Shown: positions 5,340-55,142 of the stretch, piece after piece | Position numbering within the stretch: the stretch's first letter is position 1 | How the letters are laid out: each line of letters starts with the position of its first letter | Origin: a bacterium | GTDB taxonomy: Bacteria > Patescibacteriota > Doudnabacteria > UBA920 > VMFF01 | NCBI GenBank assembly: GCA_021811585.1 | Contig: JAJZOG010000014.1 | Location: 2,577 to 66,576, forward strand | Reading direction: 5' to 3' | DNA: 64,000 nucleotides | Translations under genes and position numbers: made by a program | Notes under the pieces: generated by a model | Seen by the model: only the letters and a program-made list of their open reading frames with translations | Told to the model about the DNA's origin: nothing | Database searches by the model: none

Positions 5340-7262
5340 ATGGATGTCAACCAATTTGCTTCGGAAAAAAATTTGAAAGACGCGAGCAGCGGCAATATCG
5401 GCGCTGGCAATGGAAATATAGGCAATGGATCACAGCCGCCATCTCCGAAAATACCGGAAGAACTTGTTTTTAAAGTGATGCCCAAAGGATTTCCATTGCC
5501 AAAAATAAATTTTAAACAACCTGCGCCCGAGCCTGTGGCCATGGCCGCGCCTCATTCAACCGCGCCGGCGCCATCATCATCATTAGCATCGTCGCCATTG
5601 CCTCCGCCGCCTCCACCACCACTGCCGCCACAATCATCAGTGCCGGCGCCACAATCATCGCCGTCACCATTATCAGCGCCACGATCCTCGTCGCTACAAT
5701 CATCACCATCACAATCATTATATGGAATACCCCAAACTTTTGCGAAAAAAGCATCGCCGGTCCCACCTTTAAAATCCTTGCCAACCTCGATGCCGCCCCC
5801 AAGGGCAGCTCCAATTTCACAGGTTCAATTTTCACATGCTTCGCAGGCAGCGCAACCGCAAACTCCGCAGCTCGGGGCCGCTGGCGCACCAGCATCAAAT
5901 AATGCAGGGCAATCTCCTAATGCAGGACAATCTCCGAGTTCACTCGGCCTGCTTCAGAACGATTTTGATGCCGGCCTGTTTCAGAGCAGAATGTCCGGCA
6001 AGAAAATTTTATTTTTTGCCGGCATAGGAATTATTGTTTTGATTCTGCTGGGCAGCGGCATTTATGCCTACACGCGGCTCTCGAAAAAATCTCCGGCTCC
6101 AATTCCCGCGTCCCAAACAGCCGGTTCCGGGGAAATTCCGGGCAGCGGAAATTCACCGGGAGCAGGGTCGTCGCCAAATTCGAGTCAGACCCCGTCCGTA
6201 CAATCTCAAATACCATCTTCTTGGCTGCAAAAATATTTCGGTGAAACTGTCTGCGCAGACCAAAATGTCTGCGGCGATAATGCAGATCCTGATCACGACG
6301 GCCTCACAAATTTGGAAGAATACAAACTCGGCACTGATCCGAACAACCCCGACAGTTCTGGGAGCGGGATTGCGGATGGCGATAAGGTTCATGTTTTTAA
6401 TTTGGATCCGCTCTCGGATCACACCGCGGGCATTTTAAAATACACCGATGCAGGCGATTTAAAATATAAATATAATTCGCGTACGCACCAGCCATTCACA
6501 GCCGAAGATTTGGCGAAAATCGCAGCGAACATAAAACAATATGGGTTGCACGAACCCACAATTATGACCTTAGGACCCGATCTTGTAAATTTTTACACCA
6601 ACGGCGGCGGTGTGGCGGCGGGCGGGAATTCGAGCCCCACAGAAGAGCTTAACCGCGATACCCAGCGCGCGGACACCATCAAACAAATTAGCTTTGCTCT
6701 TATAAAATATCAACAAAGCAACGGCTCGTATCCGGATACAAATGATTTCACGACAATGATAGCAGATATCCAACCCATTCTTTCCGCAGGCCGAGCGATA
6801 AATACAACGGATCCGCTTAACACGCCCCCTTATATTTATGGCTACCAGTCCGTAAATAGCGGCGCGGATTTTAAGCTCTCTTATTTTTCCGAAACGCAGA
6901 ATCAGGAAATTGATATTGATGCCGCGGAAGCCCTGCAGGAGTACAGCAAGGATCAGGAAGACCAGCATGATGCCCAGCGGCAAAACGATTTGCAGCAAAT
7001 TGCAAATGCTTTGGAATTGTACTCGAATGACAATGCCAACCCAGCCGATCCTTCACAAAAGGTTTTTCCTTCAGAAACAAGCTGGAAAGAGGCGATTTCA
7101 AAATATCTTTCGCCAATCCCCGTTGACCCGAAAACAGACCAAGATTACACTTACACAGTTTCCCCGGACAACACACGTTTTGCGATTCAGGCGGTTTTAG
7201 AAGACCCTCCGACAGGGGACAAAGGTTATGTTTGTTCCCAGGATGGGTGTACGTATTACTAG
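5340..7262 (+). CDS. Proline-rich membrane-anchored protein with two pseudopilin-core-like repeats (hypothetical)
   Basis: It has a PPPPPPLPP tract, a single TM (ILFFAGIGIIVLILLGSGIYAYT), DPDHDGLTNLEEYKLGTDPNNPD (calcium-binding-like), and two segments resembling the GspG/pilin core (ADTIKQISFALIKYQQSNGSYP; DLQQIANALELYSNDNANP). Confidence 0.55.
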   Translation: MDVNQFASEKNLKDASSGNIGAGNGNIGNGSQPPSPKIPEELVFKVMPKGFPLPKINFKQPAPEPVAMAAPHSTAPAPSSSLASSPLPPPPPPPLPPQSSVPAPQSSPSPLSAPRSSSLQSSPSQSLYGIPQTFAKKASPVPPLKSLPTSMPPPRAAPISQVQFSHASQAAQPQTPQLGAAGAPASNNAGQSPNAGQSPSSLGLLQNDFDAGLFQSRMSGKKILFFAGIGIIVLILLGSGIYAYTRLSKKSPAPIPASQTAGSGEIPGSGNSPGAGSSPNSSQTPSVQSQIPSSWLQKYFGETVCADQNVCGDNADPDHDGLTNLEEYKLGTDPNNPDSSGSGIADGDKVHVFNLDPLSDHTAGILKYTDAGDLKYKYNSRTHQPFTAEDLAKIAANIKQYGLHEPTIMTLGPDLVNFYTNGGGVAAGGNSSPTEELNRDTQRADTIKQISFALIKYQQSNGSYPDTNDFTTMIADIQPILSAGRAINTTDPLNTPPYIYGYQSVNSGADFKLSYFSETQNQEIDIDAAEALQEYSKDQEDQHDAQRQNDLQQIANALELYSNDNANPADPSQKVFPSETSWKEAISKYLSPIPVDPKTDQDYTYTVSPDNTRFAIQAVLEDPPTGDKGYVCSQDGCTYY

Positions 7263-7441
7263 GGTTACTGGGGTCCAACCCAAACCCCCAACCTAAACCC
7301 CTGATCCAAACCCCCAATCTAAAACCCTAACCTAAAAAATAATGCACTTTTAAAGGACTTTTTCTTAACTTCTTCTTAAATACTTAATAAAAAACCCTGG
7401 ATTAGGGTTTTAGATTGGGGTATTAGGTTGGGGGTTTGGGT
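7263..7441. repeat. Long imperfect inverted repeat built from C-rich/G-rich heptamers, with a G4 motif on the + strand
   Basis: The 5' arm 7272-7330 (ccaaaccccc aacctaaacccc...) is mirrored by the 3' arm 7384-7441 (gggtttta gattggggtattaggttgggggtttgggttgg). Confidence 0.8.
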
Positions 7442-7450
7442 TGGACCCAT

Positions 7451-7819
7451 ATGCAAAATATTATTACTGCAAAAGTTTTAGAATGGCACAAGCATCCAAA
7501 CGCAGACCGTCTGCGAATAGTCAAAGTGGATGCGGGGCCAGAGCATGGAATTATAGAGCCGGTTGTGTGCGGCGCGACGAACTTTGATGTTGGCGATATT
7601 GTGGTTTTGGCGCTGCCCGGCGCGCACATAGCGCAAAATATTCACAGCGAAACGCACGAGCCATTTATTTTAGATAAAGCCGTAATTCGCGGCATCCAAA
7701 GTCAAGGGATGCTTTGTGCTGCCTTTGAATTGGGCCTTAGTAGCGAGCCGGAGCCGATTATTTTAGTACTCCCTTCTGGAACCCTTGTGGGTAGCGAGTT
7801 TCAGCCACAAATGGTATAA
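7451..7819 (+). CDS. Standalone tRNA-binding domain protein (PheT-N-terminal/CsaA/Trbp111-like OB fold)
   Basis: AKVLEWHKHPNADRLRIVKVDAG...VVCGATN...GDIVVLALPGA...QGMLCAAFELGL matches the tRNA_bind (EMAP/Myf) motif set. ATG at 7451. Confidence 0.75.
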   Translation: MQNIITAKVLEWHKHPNADRLRIVKVDAGPEHGIIEPVVCGATNFDVGDIVVLALPGAHIAQNIHSETHEPFILDKAVIRGIQSQGMLCAAFELGLSSEPEPIILVLPSGTLVGSEFQPQMV

Positions 7820-7871
7820 TTTTAAATTGTAACCTGGCCAACATCAGCCAACACCAACTCACGGCACCCAT

Positions 7872-9009
7872 ATGAACATCACTATTACCTCGGATAAAGA
7901 AAAGCAACTCAAAGAAACCCTCCAAAGCAAAACAGATTTTCAGAGCCAGCGCATCAGGCGCTATTTAAAGATGCCCGATCTCTCGCGCACGCCCGGCAGT
8001 CCCATTTATGAGCTTGCCCAGCGCATCACCAACCTCCATGAATTTAAAAATTTCGATATCATAGAAGTGCCTGAAATCGTCCCCGCGGACATTAGTTTTG
8101 ACCTTTTCGATTTTCCGCCGGACCATCCGGTGCGCAGCCCTTCGGACACATATTATATTGATCCCCAAAATATTCTCCGCACCCACACAACAGTAATGTG
8201 GTATTACTACCTCATGAATGAGGATATAAAAAAGCGCATCGCCGCAGGCGAGGCGGTTGGTTCGCTTTGCTACGGCAAAGTTTTTCGCAAAGACGAAATT
8301 GATCGCCGGCACATGAATATTTTTCATCAAATGGACGGCTGGTATCTTTGCCGCAAAGATGAAAAAATCATCACAACAACGGATTTGCAAAACGTGCTCG
8401 CAAAAAATCGCGCAAGCGGTTTTCGGTCCCGACATAAAATACCGTTTCAACGAGGATAAATTTCCTTATACTGATCCGTCGCTTGAAATGGAAATTGATA
8501 TTGACGGCAATTGGATAGAGGTCTTGGGCAGCGGCGTTGTTAAGGGGAGCGTTTTGGAAAAATTGGGAGTGGATTCGTCCAAATACAACGGCTGGGCATT
8601 TGGCTTTGGCTTGGAGCGCCTGGCAATTGTGAGTATGGCTTTGCCGGATATCCGTTTATTATGGTCTGAGGACGAGCGTGTTAAGCGCCAGCTAAAGTTG
8701 GGAAAAAAATTCCAGGAAGTGAGCAAATTCCCGCCGATTACGCGCGACATTTCATTTGTGGTCGGCAAGGATTTTGTGCCCAATAATTATTTTGATTTGA
8801 TCCGGGAAATCGGCGGCGATCTTGTGGAAGAAGTGGAGCTTTTGGATAAATATGAAAATGCCGCGAAGTTCGGTCCGGATAAAATCAGTTATACATACCG
8901 CGTGGTTTACCGCAGCCCGGAACGCACGCTTAAGAGTGAAGAAATAGATCCGTTGCAGGACAAACTTTATAACGAAACAAAAACGCAATATCAAGCGGAA
9001 TTGAGATAG
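7872..9009 (+). CDS. pheS: Phenylalanyl-tRNA synthetase alpha-type catalytic core fused to C-terminal FDX-ACB domain; interrupted by a 1-nt frameshift in an A6 run (~8402-8407)
   Basis: Class II motifs are present: HPVRSPSDTYY, LRTHTT, FRKDEIDRRHMNIFHQMDG (frame 0), then FPYTDPSLEMEI...GWAFGFGLERLAI (frame +1). The C-terminus FPPITRDISFVVGKD... is FDX-ACB-like. Assuming A7 instead of A6 gives a continuous ...VLAKKIAQAVFGPD... Confidence 0.75.
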
Positions 9010-9146: not shown

Positions 9147-9224
9147 TTTTTGGCAGGGGAATCACCGCTGCTTCCGGCAGGGGAATCACCTTCGATTCCA
9201 GCAGAGGGATCACCTCTGATTCCG
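9147..9224 (+). repeat. 3 x 24-nt tandem repeat in the gyrB 5' leader
   Basis: ggcaggggaatcaccgctgcttcc / ggcaggggaatcaccttcgattcc / agcagagggatcacctctgattcc. Confidence 0.8.
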
Positions 9225-9293
9225 GCCATGGTTTCGCAGATTTTTTCATTTCATTTTTTCGTCTCATTTTCACCTAATTTTTCATCCAATTTA

Positions 9294-11450
9294 ATGCCCA
9301 AATCAATCCAAAAAAATTCAAAAGGAGATAATCGGAAAAAATCAGCCGGCAATGCGCCGGCATCCAAATCCTCTTACGGCGCGGAACAAATAACTGTGCT
9401 GGAAGGCCTTGATCCTGTCCGCAAACGTCCGGGAATGTATATTGGCTCCACGGGTGAAGCGGGGTTGCATCATTTAATTTGGGAAGTTGTGGATAACTCT
9501 GTTGATGAGGCCATGGCAGGATATGCCAGTAAAATTGAAGTGATTTTGCAGAAAGATGGCGGGTGCACTGTTATTGATAACGGCCGCGGCATTCCCGTTG
9601 ACATTCACAAGCAAACCAAAAAATCCGCTCTTGAAACGGTTATGACTGTTTTGCACGCTGGCGGAAAATTCGGCGGAGAAGCGTCCGGCTACAAGGTTTC
9701 GGGCGGCTTGCACGGAGTTGGCGTTAGCGTTGTAAATGCGCTTTCCACGGACATGATTACGCAAGTGCGCCGAGACGGAAAAATTTACGAACAGCATTTC
9801 AAGATAGGAAAGCCGCAGGGCAAAGTGAAGGAAATCGGCAAAATTGCTGCAAACGACCAGTACAAAAGCGGAACGAAACAGACGTTCTATCCGGACGTTT
9901 CGATTTTTTCAGCAACCGAATTTAAATTAAAAACAGTGCTCGAGCATTTGCGCTCGCAAGCGTATTTGACGCGCGGCTTGCATTTCAAAATCACGGACGA
10001 GCGCGACTCTCTGACATATCAATATTATTTTGAGGGCGGAATAATTTCGTACATCAAGCAAATCAATCGCAAAAAAAAGGCCAAGCACGATCCTATTTAC
10101 ATAAATAAAACGGTTGATGAAATTATGGTTGAAATTGCTGTGCAGTACACGGACGATTTCGATGAAACGGTTTTGGCATACGCGAATAATGAATATAATC
10201 CCGAAGGCGGCATGCACGTGACCGGTTTTCGCACCGCGCTGACCCGTTCCATAAACAATTACGCGGCCAAGAACGGATTTGTAAAAGAAAGCGATAAGCT
10301 TACCGGCGAAGATATGCGCGAAGGCCTGACTGCGATAATTTCCGTGAAGCTGCCGAACCCGCAGTTCGAAGGCCAGACAAAAGCAAAGCTCGGCAATCCC
10401 GAAGTGCGCACTGCAGTGGAATCGGTTGTCGGCGGGGCGCTTGAAATTTATTTTGAAGAACATCCCGGCGACGCTTCCAAAATAATGGAAAAGGTAATTT
10501 TGGCGTCAAAGGCGCGCCTTGCCGCGCGCGCCGCGCGCGAATCCGTTATCCGCAAGGGCATTTTGGAAGGTTTGGCTTTGCCCGGAAAATTGGCAGATTG
10601 TTCGGAAAAGGATCCGAGCGCGTGCGAGATATATATTGTGGAAGGCGATAGCGCCGGTGGCACGGCAAAACAGGGTCGCGACAGAAAATACCAGGCAATT
10701 TTGCCGCTGCGCGGAAAAATTTTGAACGTTGAGCGCGCGCGGCTGGATCGCATGCTTGGCAGCGAGCAAATCAAGAATTTGGTTATTGCCATGGGCGCCG
10801 GAGTGGGCGAGCAGTTTGACATTGAAAAGATGCGCTACCATCGCTTGATAATCATGACTGATGCCGATGTTGACGGCGCGCACATCCGCACTTTGCTTTT
10901 GACTTTGTTTTACAGATATTTCCCCGAAGTGATTCGTCGCGGCTATTTGTACATTGCCCAGCCGCCGCTTTTCCGCGTGCAAGTTGGCAAACAATTCCAA
11001 TACGCGTTTTCGGAAAGCGAGCGCGATGAAATTTTGGAGGATTTGCTTGCGGAGCGCGAAGCCGGGAAAAAATTAAAAGAAAAAGGCAAGGGCAAAAAAG
11101 GCGAAGCAGGGCGAAGCCCGGAAGGACCGAAGTTGGATGAAACCGGCGAAGCGGATAGCACTTCCTCACCGGCAGAGCAAGTTGGCGAAGATGGCGCTCC
11201 TGCCGGAACTGCGGTCGAAGAGGGCAAAAAAGGATACAGCGTTCAGCGCTACAAAGGCCTTGGCGAGATGAATGCCGAGCAGTTGTGGGAGACAACCATG
11301 AATCCTGAAAACCGCGTGATTGTCAGGGTACAAATTGATGATGCGGAAAAGGCTTCCGAGGTTTTTGAAACATTAATGGGCGACGAGGTTGCGCCGCGCA
11401 AGCGCTTCATCCAAACGCACGCGAAATCGGTGAAAAATCTTGATGTCTAG
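9294..11450 (+). CDS. gyrB: DNA gyrase subunit B
   Basis: VLEGLDPVRKRPGMYIGST, HHLIWEVVDNSVDEA, and Toprim EGDSAGG. The ATG at 9294 gives a normal N-terminus; the track's upstream TTG start runs through the leader repeats. A low-complexity insertion (KEKGKGKKGEAG...EEGKKG) precedes the C-terminal YKGLGEM. Confidence 0.9.
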   Translation: MPKSIQKNSKGDNRKKSAGNAPASKSSYGAEQITVLEGLDPVRKRPGMYIGSTGEAGLHHLIWEVVDNSVDEAMAGYASKIEVILQKDGGCTVIDNGRGIPVDIHKQTKKSALETVMTVLHAGGKFGGEASGYKVSGGLHGVGVSVVNALSTDMITQVRRDGKIYEQHFKIGKPQGKVKEIGKIAANDQYKSGTKQTFYPDVSIFSATEFKLKTVLEHLRSQAYLTRGLHFKITDERDSLTYQYYFEGGIISYIKQINRKKKAKHDPIYINKTVDEIMVEIAVQYTDDFDETVLAYANNEYNPEGGMHVTGFRTALTRSINNYAAKNGFVKESDKLTGEDMREGLTAIISVKLPNPQFEGQTKAKLGNPEVRTAVESVVGGALEIYFEEHPGDASKIMEKVILASKARLAARAARESVIRKGILEGLALPGKLADCSEKDPSACEIYIVEGDSAGGTAKQGRDRKYQAILPLRGKILNVERARLDRMLGSEQIKNLVIAMGAGVGEQFDIEKMRYHRLIIMTDADVDGAHIRTLLLTLFYRYFPEVIRRGYLYIAQPPLFRVQVGKQFQYAFSESERDEILEDLLAEREAGKKLKEKGKGKKGEAGRSPEGPKLDETGEADSTSSPAEQVGEDGAPAGTAVEEGKKGYSVQRYKGLGEMNAEQLWETTMNPENRVIVRVQIDDAEKASEVFETLMGDEVAPRKRFIQTHAKSVKNLDV

Positions 11451-29022: not shown

Positions 29023-30069
29023 CTAGCCGTTTTCATTTGATGCTGTCCATTGCGCGTGTATATGATAATCCGGGCGGCCCACGCAGGTATTTATATCTTT
29101 TTGGGCTTTAGGGCCGTTTAAATCAGTTAAATCAAGAACTAAAAATTGATGTTGGGAAACGCCCGGTAAATTACATTCAACCGCTGCTAGTAATAAGCCG
29201 TTGTTTTGGAGTTTTTGGAGAATTGCCGGTATTTGGTCCTTGCTTGATGGTACGAAATCAACGGCCTCACCGGCATAATGCGGATCATTTTGAGAAGCGT
29301 GGTGGCCGCTTGTGATAGAAGTTACGGATACTCTTAGATTATTGTTTGCTACTTCAATAAGCCCCTTAATCAAATTATCATCAATTGATGTTGTTCCTGC
29401 ATCGCATATTTTGCCCGGGCCGTCATATTGCGCGTCTTGGCCGGCTGCGATTGCCGACAAATTTAGCAGCGGCCCGTTTGGCGGGCAATCCGTGCCAGGC
29501 GCTAAAAGTATTTTACCCTCGCTTGCCAACTTTAAAAGCGCTTTTGCATTATCTTGGGTGCCCGCATCAGGAGCATTTGCCGCGACTTGCGGCGTTGTCG
29601 GTATAGTGCAATTATTGGCATCGCAATTTATGGGCGCAAGAGGTTCTACATTTATATTCGTGAGGTTGGGGTCAATGGTATTTAGGAATATATAAGATCC
29701 AAAAAGAATTACCAGCCCGAAAATCGTTGATCTTATGAATTCCTTGCCTTTTTCTTGTTTGCCGCTCATGTACATGTAACCGGCAAGCACAAACATCAGC
29801 ACTGCCACAAAACTGCCAATGCTGATTGCGAATATATAAACATTATTTAAGCACCTGGCAAAATTATATTGGGAAGTGTTACTGCTGTTGTCAGGAGTGC
29901 AAATCATGTCAAAGGTGTTTGAGGAGCTCGAATTCGGGCCTGATGGCGATGATCCCGAGGCAAAAGCCCGCGGTGTCAGGGATGTTATGAGGAAAGCTGA
30001 ATAAAATAAGGTAATGATTGCAAAGAGCAAAAGAGCTAATTTTTTTTCTGAATTTTTTATTTTTTTCAT
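29023..30069 (-). CDS. Membrane protein with C-terminal LAS/M15-like zinc-peptidase motif (putative peptidoglycan peptidase)
   Basis: Two TMs; SGHHASQNDPHYAGEAVDF resembles the H-x6-D ... H-x2-G-x-A-x-D zinc site of VanX/M15 peptidases. Adjacent to the M23 peptidase gene. Confidence 0.4.
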   Translation of the reverse strand: MKKIKNSEKKLALLLFAIITLFYSAFLITSLTPRAFASGSSPSGPNSSSSNTFDMICTPDNSSNTSQYNFARCLNNVYIFAISIGSFVAVLMFVLAGYMYMSGKQEKGKEFIRSTIFGLVILFGSYIFLNTIDPNLTNINVEPLAPINCDANNCTIPTTPQVAANAPDAGTQDNAKALLKLASEGKILLAPGTDCPPNGPLLNLSAIAAGQDAQYDGPGKICDAGTTSIDDNLIKGLIEVANNNLRVSVTSITSGHHASQNDPHYAGEAVDFVPSSKDQIPAILQKLQNNGLLLAAVECNLPGVSQHQFLVLDLTDLNGPKAQKDINTCVGRPDYHIHAQWTASNENG

Positions 30070-51858: not shown

Positions 51859-53820
51859 TTATTCCGAAGTTATTTTGTGCGATTCCCCGGGTTTTAAAAT
51901 TTTTTTATGTTGCTGGCCGTGATTATTCCTGTCCTGAGCGCTGTTTCCCGTGCTCAAACTTTTTGCCAGGGTATTTGCCAAACCGGCGGCCAGGTTTTGT
52001 GATTTTTGCCGGTTCATTTTAGCAGCTGTTTCCCAAATGGCATTATCTTTTTTTGCCATTGGCCTGGCGGGGTGGTTCGCAAAATGGTTTCCAGAATGGT
52101 TATTTGAATGCATGTTCCTGGTTTGGCCGGTATTATTTTTGCCGTAGGAATTGTGCGGCTGGGGGCTGCGCGCATTATGTGTTTGGAAATTATTCGGCCG
52201 GGGATTGTATTGGGAATTATATTGCCGGGATGCATGCGGTTCGATGTTTTCGTATTTTGTTTTTTGCGCTTCCTTTGGTTCCCGGCCAGGTTCCTTTGTT
52301 TCCTTGTCTGCTTCTGTATTTGTTTTTTTGCCTGCTGTATTCGTTTCCCAGTCTGGTGCTGCGTTCGATTGTTGTGCCGCCATATTTTGCGCCGCACTGC
52401 TGGAGACCGTTTTTTCCATTTCAGCCGGCGCTTGTGGCGCAACCGCTGTTTCCACTTCTTCTTCGCCCTCCTGGCGCGCGCCGCTGGCAATTACAGCGGC
52501 TTGTTCGTGATATTCCTGCCCCATCCAGCGCAATATTTTATCTTCAACTTCAGCAACGGGATTTGCATATCTTTCCCGTGAGATGCGAATTACTTTGTCC
52601 GTATTGGCTATTTTTCTGTGGGTTTCCGGCGCCAAGGTTGTGGCCGTAAAAGGGTCGGAAGCCACGCCGTTAATCATTAATTTTAGAATGATGTGATGTT
52701 TGGGCAGATTCACCAGATCGTTTTCCGTAAATTGCGGCGCAAATTCTTTTTCTAAAAATTCCGAATCAGCCGCGCCCACGCGAAAAGTGACGATTGTCCC
52801 GACGTTGCCGAAAACCGCGTCGCGCACTTTTGTGCTTCTGCCGTCGCTGCCTGTGAGCTGGCCGATATATTGATGCCCGATTGTGAGGTTCAGGCGGTAT
52901 TTGCGCGCCTCGGAAAGTATTGTGGCAAATGATTCCGTGGCAAAATTTTGGAATTCGTCGACGTACAAAAAGAAATCGTGGCGTTCCTGCTCGCTGATAT
53001 CGACGCGCGAAAGCGCGGCCAGCTGGAGCTTGGTGATAAGCATGGCGCCGAGCAAATCGGAATTGTCCTCGCCGATGCGCCCTTTGGCAAGATTCATTAA
53101 GATTATTTTTTTGTTGTCCATGAGCGAACGCAAATCAATGGTGCTTTTCGGCTGGCCGACAATGTTGCGTATAATTCCAGATGAAAGGAATTGCCCGACT
53201 TTATTTTGGATTGGCGCAATGGATTCCATGCGGTATTTTTCGTTCCAATTCGCGAATTCATCCACCCAGAAGGATTTGACCATCGGGTCTTTGATATTGT
53301 CGACAATCCGTTTGCGGTATTTTTTGTCTATCAGCATTCGGGAAATTCCGAGCAGGGTGTTGCCGGGAGAATCCAAAAGCGCGAGTATGGCGTTATTTAA
53401 GATATATTCCATGCGCGCGGACCATAAATTAGCCCAAATTTTTGTGAACACGCCCATAAGCCCCGAAGCAACCAGATGCTTGTAATTCGGGTCAACCGCT
53501 TCCAAAATATTAAAAGCAATCGGAAATTCCCTGTCAGCGGGATTGAAATAAACCACGTCGTTCACGCGGCTTGAAGGCACGTAATCCAAAATTTTCTCAA
53601 CTGAATCCCCGTGCGGATCCACAAACGCCAAGCCGTTGCCGTTCGCTATGTCTTGGATAATCATGTTTTCCATGAGCGTTGTTTTGCCCATGCCGGTTTT
53701 TCCGATGATATACATGTGCCGGCGCCGGTCTTCGCGCTTTATGCCAAACGGCACTTCCTTGTGGCGGAAGTTTGTCTTGGCGAAAATTGTGATGTCGTTG
53801 TTATCCTGTTCTGCGTCCAT
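51859..53820 (-). CDS. TraD/TrwB/VirD4-type coupling-protein-like P-loop ATPase lacking N-terminal TM segments, with long disordered Q/N/K-rich C-terminal tail
   Basis: Walker A IIGKTGMGKTT; LAFVDPHGDS, YFNPADRE and FNILEA blocks, in spacing, match F-TraD/TrwB. Walker B-like FFLYVDEFQNF. Residues ~430-653 are low complexity. Confidence 0.6.
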   Translation of the reverse strand: MDAEQDNNDITIFAKTNFRHKEVPFGIKREDRRRHMYIIGKTGMGKTTLMENMIIQDIANGNGLAFVDPHGDSVEKILDYVPSSRVNDVVYFNPADREFPIAFNILEAVDPNYKHLVASGLMGVFTKIWANLWSARMEYILNNAILALLDSPGNTLLGISRMLIDKKYRKRIVDNIKDPMVKSFWVDEFANWNEKYRMESIAPIQNKVGQFLSSGIIRNIVGQPKSTIDLRSLMDNKKIILMNLAKGRIGEDNSDLLGAMLITKLQLAALSRVDISEQERHDFFLYVDEFQNFATESFATILSEARKYRLNLTIGHQYIGQLTGSDGRSTKVRDAVFGNVGTIVTFRVGAADSEFLEKEFAPQFTENDLVNLPKHHIILKLMINGVASDPFTATTLAPETHRKIANTDKVIRISRERYANPVAEVEDKILRWMGQEYHEQAAVIASGARQEGEEEVETAVAPQAPAEMEKTVSSSAAQNMAAQQSNAAPDWETNTAGKKTNTEADKETKEPGREPKEAQKTKYENIEPHASRQYNSQYNPRPNNFQTHNARSPQPHNSYGKNNTGQTRNMHSNNHSGNHFANHPARPMAKKDNAIWETAAKMNRQKSQNLAAGLANTLAKSLSTGNSAQDRNNHGQQHKKILKPGESHKITSE

Positions 53821-53867: not shown

Positions 53868-55142
53868 TTAGCCGGCAACAGGCAAATTTGCAGGTGGCTG
53901 GCCTTTTTTGACTTCAATTCTTTCAACAGGCGGAGTTGTCGTTGTTGCCAGAGGAAAATGAAAAAGCGTTGTAAGTTCTTCGGCATTTAGGACCACGGGA
54001 TCAGCGCCAATCCACATGTCGCGGTTCGCAAAGCCTTCTATAAAGCGTTCTTTTCTTTTGGCAATTACCCAATCAACAAACGGCTGTTCCAGGGTTTGGA
54101 AAACCTTATATGAATAACCTGTCCAAATTTTCATGTTGGGCTTGAGATTGTTCGTTGTGATGCCTGAAAATTGGCGGAACGCGCCGACAATTCCCGTTTT
54201 TTTAGTGTTGTCCATTTTATCTTTCGGCGCAATATATAAACTGCGGATTTTGGTTCCCCAGCCAACCTTGGACATTTTTGTTTCAACAGCAAGCAGCGTG
54301 CGTTTTTCGCCTTCCGTGAGCTTTTGCACTGCCGCAATTCTTTCTTCCTCTTTTTTTACCGACGTTTTGCCTGTAAAAAAATTTATAAACTTTCCAAAAG
54401 CGCCGATTTTTTCCTCGGGCTTTACCCCTTTGAATGCATTCACCGTTTCTTGCGCGTGCGGCTGCCAGGCGGAATCTTTCATTGGCAGTATGTCAATTTG
54501 CACTGCCATAAGTTCGTGCGGTTCGGCTTTTGAAAGCGCTTCCAGGAGCCCTGCCAGAGGATCTAGAATTTTGTTTTCCGAAATCGGATGCTCGAAGTCC
54601 TTATAGGTTTTAATTGGGTAGGCATAATCTCTAAGCATACCCCATTCAGTGCCCCATAAATCCCAAGAGCTTTTTTCAGGGTCCCATTTTTTGAGATGTT
54701 CCATGTAATCATGCACCTCTGTAATTTCAGCGCTCGGAAATTGCGCGTAAAAAGCGCTTTCAACGAGATTTACGTATTTGTCCGGAACGCGCATGATGTA
54801 TGATATTTTTCCGCCTAAGCTCACGATTTCCAGTGAAAACCAAAGCTGCAGTTGCCCTTCCAGGTATTTGCCGGCCCAGGTAATTGTGCTTTCGAGCGCA
54901 TGCAGCTGCGCGAAAATCTGCTCGACAGCAAGCAAGCTCTGGAGATTTTCTTTTTCCACCTTGATGTGCAGAAATTTCCAAGTTATGCCCTTAAGGTAGC
55001 GCCCATTAATGGCCATCATATAAATTTGAAATGCCAGCCAGAGCGCCAGCAGCCCGAAAATCACCCAGCCGCCGTGCACAAAGACAAACCACGCTTCAGA
55101 AAACGTGGCTAGCGAAGCGTTTATTGTGGAAGACCAAATCAT
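53868..55142 (-). CDS. Membrane protein (2 N-terminal TMs + ~350-aa soluble domain), partner of the TraD-like ATPase (hypothetical)
   Basis: The N-terminal TMs are FVFVHGGWVIFGLLALWLAF...; same strand and operon. Confidence 0.5.
   Translation of the reverse strand: MIWSSTINASLATFSEAWFVFVHGGWVIFGLLALWLAFQIYMMAINGRYLKGITWKFLHIKVEKENLQSLLAVEQIFAQLHALESTITWAGKYLEGQLQLWFSLEIVSLGGKISYIMRVPDKYVNLVESAFYAQFPSAEITEVHDYMEHLKKWDPEKSSWDLWGTEWGMLRDYAYPIKTYKDFEHPISENKILDPLAGLLEALSKAEPHELMAVQIDILPMKDSAWQPHAQETVNAFKGVKPEEKIGAFGKFINFFTGKTSVKKEEERIAAVQKLTEGEKRTLLAVETKMSKVGWGTKIRSLYIAPKDKMDNTKKTGIVGAFRQFSGITTNNLKPNMKIWTGYSYKVFQTLEQPFVDWVIAKRKERFIEGFANRDMWIGADPVVLNAEELTTLFHFPLATTTTPPVERIEVKKGQPPANLPVAG

Follow-up and report, generated by a model that had tools for sequence, protein, structure and literature searches.

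We examined a 64,000-base stretch of contig JAJZOG010000014.1 (the window hereafter), which comes from a bacterium of the ultra-small Patescibacteria, and focused on two same-strand genes lying 5' of gyrB. The downstream gene of the pair, here called PheS-FDX, encodes a 378-amino-acid (aa) protein in which a phenylalanyl-tRNA synthetase (PheRS) alpha-type catalytic core is followed directly by an FDX-ACB domain; the upstream gene encodes a small OB-fold protein of the kind found as the B2 domain of the PheRS beta subunit, PheT. PheS-FDX is a real bacterial variant of a monomeric kind of PheRS known from mitochondria and giant viruses. We consider it likely that the locus specifies a mitochondrial-type, single-chain PheRS together with a PheT-B2-type helper, and that the enzyme most likely replaced the canonical alpha2beta2 PheRS in the lineage. 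PheS-FDX would then quite probably be the sole PheRS of its host genome, and the small B2 protein is probably a tRNA-binding helper.

The two-domain composition of PheS-FDX was established on the intact protein obtained after repair of a one-base frameshift, which is described below. Pfam placed tRNA-synt_2d on residues 43-273 (E 8.5e-53) and FDX-ACB (PF03147) on residues 284-378 (E 1.9e-22), and the motif FPPITRDISFVVGKD was found in the FDX-ACB-bearing downstream gene, in agreement with an earlier note, made from the letters of the window, that had placed an FDX-ACB domain at the C-terminus of PheS. When solved structures were searched by sequence, human mitochondrial PheRS (mtPheRS) came first (195 bits and E 1.4e-56 for 5MGU and 3CMQ); among bacterial PheS alpha chains the highest score was 130 bits, and PheT chains aligned through their C-terminal B8 domain only. 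The catalytic core is of the alpha type, with 29% identity to E. coli PheS (128 bits). The bacterial alpha-chain profile TIGR00468 (pheS) gave 158.2 bits against a cutoff of 237.45, so that the protein was not classed as a canonical alpha chain, which has no FDX-ACB domain. Across 55 orthologues the segments RTHT, FRKDEID..H..FHQ, FPYTDPS and GWAFGFGLERL, which comprise the class II motifs and the amino-acid pocket, were invariant, and the motif 2 and motif 3 residues together with His105, Arg139, Gln153 and Ala242 were invariant in the family.

The predicted fold led to the same relative. An AlphaFold2 (AF2) model built on the 55 orthologues (pLDDT 90.7, pTM 0.85) was compared with solved structures by Foldseek. 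The model aligned over both domains of closed human mtPheRS (5MGH, 3CMQ) with TMq 0.75-0.77 and E ~2e-32, less well with the open, tRNA-bound form 3TUP (TMq 0.58), and with bacterial alpha chains over the catalytic core only (TMq ~0.54). The earlier note had likened the architecture to human FARS2 and had proposed alignment to FARS2, PheS and PheT as well as structure modelling as checks; both the sequence scores and the fit of mtPheRS across the two domains bear this likeness out.

In the window the gene at 7872-9009 is not a single open reading frame (ORF), a feature that the earlier note overlooked when it described an FDX-ACB domain fused to PheS. It is divided into an ORF at 7872-8459 (frame 0, 195 aa), which encodes the first half of the class II core of PheS (tRNA-synt_2d profile positions 17-148 in Pfam), and an ORF at 8359-9009 (+1 frame, 216 aa), which holds the second half (tRNA-synt_2d positions 143-245) and a full-length FDX-ACB domain (80 bits). 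Deleting one A from the run of six As (A6) at 8402-8407 restored an intact 378-aa protein that is 100% identical to the public protein P0001. Two public records, contig DAHXLS010000002.1 of GCA_027365855.1 (195,535 bp) and k141_107112 of ENA ERZ27237454, have five As (A5) at this place and an intact ORF encoding P0001, and the extra A was the sole difference between the window and both records across 64,000 bases.

PheS-FDX has thousands of close relatives, with 63-87% identity and lengths of ~378-381 aa. Those with a name belong to Yanofsky-, Lipton-, Giovannoni-, Doudna-, Sungii-, Azam-, Wolfe-, Zambryski-, Nomura-, Vogel- and Wildermuthbacteria and to 'Paceibacterota'. Scanning a single genome of each species by pattern confirmed PheS-FDX in at least 212 GTDB species. 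The family, which is large and highly conserved, is one of the "Parcubacteria"/Paceibacteria, and databases already label it phenylalanyl-tRNA synthetase. The domain-shuffled reduction that had been suggested was not a one-off. The description of the host as free-living was likewise unfounded, as the closest named relatives (Yanofsky-, Lipton- and Giovannonibacteria) belong to the Patescibacteria, whose members are generally held to be episymbionts. Next to PheS-FDX lay gyrB in 60 of 80 species loci, and in 48 it was downstream on the same strand. At the same loci the median identity was 68% for PheS-FDX and 59% for GyrB, and PheS-FDX had the higher identity in 42 of 60 comparisons. This degree of sequence constraint fits what would be expected of an essential housekeeping enzyme.

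The upstream gene was reported previously as a stand-alone tRNA_bind gene, and this description stood: the ORF encodes 122 aa plus a stop and matched Pfam tRNA_bind (PF01588) with E 3.2e-15. Its best NCBIfam match was to positions 45-150, the B2 domain, of TIGR00472 pheT_bact (93.8 bits, below the cutoff). Against the YtpR profile NF045760 it scored 74.4 bits (cutoff 100) over profile positions 82-185 only, and the 122-aa protein does not show the two-part YtpR architecture of ~185-200 aa. The closest folds to its AF2 model (pLDDT 95.8) were the PheT B2 domains of E. coli, M. tuberculosis, P. aeruginosa and T. thermophilus together with YtpR-type proteins (TMq 0.74-0.79, 32-37% identity), and Trbp111, EMAP II and MetRS-C fitted less well (~0.55-0.60). 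Most B2 orthologues, 134-150 aa long, possess an N-terminal extension that bears a conserved FKKLF-like motif; the window copy lacks this extension. Among the 74 species loci with enough upstream sequence, 22 carried a B2 gene 17-215 nt upstream of PheS-FDX on the same strand, and B2 was joined in frame to the N-terminus of PheS-FDX in no fewer than four proteins (P0103, P0104, P0114 and P0117; 504-520 aa). This adjacency and fusion suggest that B2 is functionally tied to PheS-FDX, in a partnership that is clearly not obligatory.

Longer representatives (577-872 aa) were also considered as editing-domain fusions, and B3_4 was present in none of them. Among distant relatives, P0297 (872 aa) joins a PheS core and FDX-ACB to an AlaRS catalytic domain and P0372 (669 aa) joins them to a TACO1/YebC protein; these fusions may be eukaryotic gene-model artefacts or real.

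The search for pheT and for a second pheS covered ~72 kb of one contig, comprising the window and ~8 kb beyond it, and flanks of +/-6 kb in 80 species. Pfam labels on the called genes of the window and the adjoining ~8 kb included no B3_4, B5 or second tRNA-synt_2d domain. A tblastn search of the window and 82 family loci (~0.9 Mb) with E. coli PheT recovered only B2 genes (residues 41-151) and FDX-ACB segments (residues ~605-794), with no match to residues ~150-600. Overall, neither B3/4, B5 or B6/7 segments nor a second PheS was found in the window and ~8 kb beyond or in the 80 related loci. Of the beta architecture described by TIGR00472 (cutoff 402.65) only two domains were present: B2, encoded by a gene of its own (93.8 bits), and B8, carried by the PheS chain (78.6 bits). 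Names in annotation tables can be misleading here: JGI/IMG applies the label 'phenylalanyl-tRNA synthetase beta chain' to B2-only proteins of 122-150 aa, among them P0127, P0130, P0134 and others of 134-150 aa, so such tables can hide the loss of a true PheT. In a published set of 18 Patescibacteria metagenome-assembled genomes (MAGs), three had no K01890 beta-chain call; of these, one that is 100% complete has a TIGR00472 beta match and another that is 100% complete has no beta annotation (PMC9868632). The supplementary tables of the Minisyncoccus description paper and of a Parcubacteria streamlining paper contained no relevant entries.

Several observations weigh against a single-chain PheRS that took over in this lineage. 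The protein lies below every curated NCBIfam cutoff; its top match is NF051887, 'PheS-related mystery ligase SrmL' (245.7 bits vs a cutoff of 300), and TIGR00469 pheS_mito gave 230.5 bits vs a cutoff of 258.35. Two pocket positions differ from those of E. coli and human mitochondrial PheRS, with Asp155 (FHQMDG) in place of Glu (FHQxEG) and Tyr199 (FPYTDPS) in place of the second Phe of FPF. Tyr at the latter position occurs in archaeal and eukaryotic cytosolic PheRS alpha. The window copy as given is frameshifted, and about 70% of related loci have no B2 gene within 6 kb, so the partner is not obligate. Canonical genes are present in relatives as well. In Minisyncoccus archaeiphilus pheT (2046 nt) and pheS (1062 nt) are neighbours, the former with B3/4, CLM, B5 and FDX-ACB but no B2 listed and with a Nealsonbacteria PheT as its best match (PMC10936435 supplement). 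Two related Patescibacteria MAG contigs, k117_2272329 and k117_6616565, one of them in a Kaiserbacteria bin, carry both pheS and pheT (PMC9868632). Their PheS is unusually short (~240 aa, no N-terminal coiled coil) and their PheT measures ~640-650 aa; the length column of Table S2, from which only genes 14-34 of one contig were used, runs one row out of register below tRNA entries, which we corrected, and is inconsistent elsewhere (PMC9868632).

The SrmL match, the two pocket substitutions and the canonical pheS/pheT of other Paceibacteria would all be compatible with PheS-FDX being a paralogue with another, SrmL-like ligase function in a genome that encodes its housekeeping alpha2beta2 PheRS elsewhere. 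We regard this as unlikely. The SrmL cutoff was reached neither by the window protein nor by any of the 20 neighbouring family representatives scored, whereas the family representative P0241 (62% identical) passes TIGR00469 (264.3 vs 258.35). Also counting against a paralogue are the higher conservation relative to GyrB, the intact FDX-ACB domain, the linkage and fusion to a PheT-type B2 domain, the finding of a second PheS gene in none of 80 loci, and the single-copy state of the alpha chain K01889 in 17 of the 18 Patescibacteria MAGs (PMC9868632). The position of the gene bears on the same question: pheS-pheT lies directly upstream of gyrB in k117_2272329, that is, in at least one of the two MAG contigs, so a gyrB-linked slot that holds canonical pheS-pheT in one lineage holds B2 and PheS-FDX in the lineage of the window (PMC9868632). 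This shared slot argues, indirectly, for replacement rather than co-existence. A wider version of the replacement, in which an editing-free single-chain PheRS supplants the otherwise near-universal alpha2beta2 enzyme throughout the class (Paceibacteria and related 'Parcubacteria') and is the cellular form nearest to the monomers of mitochondria and giant viruses, whether as source or as recipient by transfer, is compatible with the data because the family borders on TIGR00469, human mtPheRS is the best structural match and the gene sits where a relative has its canonical pheST; we nevertheless think it improbable.

Doubts about the partner and about the frameshift can be weighed in the same way. 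The B2-type protein could be a general tRNA chaperone of the YtpR/Trbp111 kind, unrelated to PheRS and a neighbour by chance. Its absence near PheS-FDX in most related species and its 74-bit YtpR match point in this direction, as do the B2-like domains carried by TyrRS and LysRS in other bacteria of the candidate phyla radiation (CPR) (PMC5370408). This is unlikely, given the close same-strand spacing in 22 species, the in-frame fusions to PheS-FDX and the fact that the nearest matches in both sequence and fold are PheT B2 domains. As for the frameshift, the A6 run does give two overlapping ORFs in different frames, and taken as real it would make the gene a pseudogene, or one dependent on recoding, in the sampled organism. 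We consider this very improbable: A5 is present in both of the independent public assemblies, which otherwise agree with the window throughout its 64 kb, the gene has no other lesion, and the orthologous loci of other species align as a single uninterrupted stretch in 80 of 80 cases. Programmed frameshifting was considered and rejected on the same grounds, since the shift required is +1, whereas an A-rich heptamer would be expected to favour -1, and a run of only six As is short for transcriptional slippage. The extra A is thus most likely a sequence error or a rare variant rather than biology.

If it works as human mtPheRS does, the class IIc core of PheS-FDX would form Phe-AMP and then transfer Phe to tRNAPhe, the protein acting as a monomer. 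The FDX-ACB domain would read the GAA anticodon after a hinge opens the closed form seen in the model (compare 3CMQ with 3TUP). With no B3/B4 domain, Tyr-tRNAPhe would not be edited in cis, and fidelity would depend on the active site alone. Non-specific affinity for tRNA may come from the B2 protein, acting in trans or, in the fused forms, in cis, in a role comparable to that of other tRNA_bind helpers and of the B2 fusions on TyrRS and LysRS in CPR bacteria (PMC5370408). At the level of the lineage, the single-chain enzyme would have taken over from a canonical alpha2beta2 PheRS.

PheS-FDX resembles monomeric mitochondrial PheRS (human FARS2; 3CMQ, 3TUP; PheRS-M, TIGR00469) in having one chain, with a class IIc core followed directly by a B8-type FDX-ACB domain, and in having neither B1-B7 nor an editing domain. 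It differs in that its host is a bacterium and not an organelle, in being ~30-40 aa shorter, without a transit peptide and without a ~30-aa insertion that splits the alignment in two, in scoring under the TIGR00469 cutoff, and in the Asp-for-Glu and Tyr-for-Phe changes at the two pocket positions. A PheT-B2 OB domain also accompanies it and is part of the same chain in some species; we know of no B2-type partner for mtPheRS. With the canonical bacterial (alpha-beta)2 PheRS (TIGR00468 plus TIGR00472) the locus shares the alpha-type core, an FDX-ACB domain equivalent to PheT B8 and a helper equivalent to PheT B2; unlike that enzyme it lacks the alpha N-terminal coiled coil, B1, the B3/B4 editing region, B5 and B6/B7, and it carries B8 on the catalytic chain and B2 as a separate gene. 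The likeness to SrmL (NF051887) takes in the C-terminal domain as well as the core (profile positions 31-345 of 349), at a score that stays under the curated cutoff.

Giant-virus monomeric PheRS, for example that of Tupanvirus, also combines a PheS core with FDX-ACB, but the viral form is ~345 aa long, passes TIGR00469, is only 34-40% identical to PheS-FDX, falls in the eukaryote-like branch and has no B2 partner that we could see. A ~345-aa pheS_mito group (P0256) was considered as a further prokaryotic monomeric PheRS and set aside, as its only named close match was Tupanvirus, so that it looks giant-viral or eukaryote-like, not prokaryotic. On the side of the helper, an OB-fold tRNA-binding module beside or fused to an aminoacyl-tRNA synthetase is a feature shared with YtpR, Trbp111/YgjH, CsaA, Arc1p/EMAP II and the B2-TyrRS fusions of CPR bacteria, in which B2 fusions to both TyrRS and LysRS have been reported (PMC5370408). 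The module of the window is of the PheT-B2/YtpR subtype, unlike the Trbp111/EMAP subtype, and is paired with a monomeric-type PheRS.

The coordinates of the locus are collected in the table.

Table. Features of the PheS-FDX locus in window coordinates.
Feature	Coordinates	Strand	Basis
Stand-alone PheT-B2-type tRNA-binding OB-fold protein, 122 aa + stop	7451..7819	+	Pfam tRNA_bind, TIGR00472, AF2 fold, orthologue linkage
PheS-FDX gene, 5' part (frame 0), residues 1-178: short helical N-terminus, class II motifs 1 and 2	7872..8406	+	Equals P0001 residues 1-178
A6 homopolymer, one A more than the public A5; moves the gene to the +1 frame	8402..8407	+	Base-by-base comparison with the public records L001 and L002
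PheS-FDX gene, 3' part (+1 frame), residues 179-378 + stop: amino-acid pocket (FPYTDPS), motif 3 (GWAFGFGLERL), then FDX-ACB anticodon-binding domain	8407..9009	+	Pfam; repaired protein equals P0001; AF2 model
FDX-ACB domain, residues 284-378	~8722-9006	+	Pfam
gyrB, conserved downstream neighbour and synteny anchor	9294..11450	+	718-aa GyrB call in public record

Repeats flank the two genes. Upstream of the tRNA_bind gene, a 49-nt imperfect inverted repeat occupies 7271-7319 and 7400-7448 (86% complementary) around an AT-rich spacer of 80 nt. Its C-rich arm begins just past the stop of the upstream ORF and its G-rich arm ends 2 nt before the tRNA_bind ATG, and within the window the 19-mer GGTTGGGGGTTTGGGTTGG is confined to the two arms. 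The repeat could be an inserted element, or form a terminator or leader structure. In the gap from the stop codon of PheS-FDX to the start of gyrB, the 24-nt tandem repeat GGCAGGGGAATCACCTCTGATTCC is present in 3.1 copies at 9152-9226, each unit holding the inverted hexamers GGAATC-N6-GATTCC. The array may be an operator, and it gives rise to a spurious long ORF with a TTG start at 9150-11450. The ORF preceding the inverted repeat (5340-7262, 640 aa) shows an extreme enrichment in Pro, Ser, Ala and Gln in its N-terminal half, and no Pfam match is on record for it; the public record calls only 407 aa of it (L001 8168-9391) and has a gene of 128 aa called antisense to the low-complexity part. 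Elsewhere in the window, type IV secretion-like genes are scattered at 29023-30069, 51859-53820 and 53868-55142, all on the minus strand, with the labels TrbC/T4SS_pilin, DUF87/TrwB ATPase and DUF8128, consistent with the published type IV secretion systems (T4SS) of Patescibacteria.

We found no description of a bacterial monomeric-type PheRS or of its B2 partner in the searchable literature, whose coverage is incomplete, and no literature on SrmL. AARS Online and related papers give PheRS-M only as mitochondrial-like, and three PheRS forms have been described, namely the bacterial (alpha-beta)2, the archaeal/eukaryotic (alpha-beta)2 and the mitochondrial monomer (PMC3275996). Surveys based on gene names could miss a true loss of PheT. 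Since pheS and pheT are standard phylogenomic marker genes (GTDB bac120), this could affect analyses of genome completeness and marker genes in Patescibacteria. If PheS-FDX is the sole PheRS in a large bacterial clade, it would provide a free-standing cellular example of an organelle-type enzyme and would indicate that the beta subunit and the editing site are dispensable outside organelles. It would also offer a tractable bacterial model for the tRNA recognition and hinge motion of FARS2-type enzymes, and would have a bearing on the origin of the mitochondrial enzyme.

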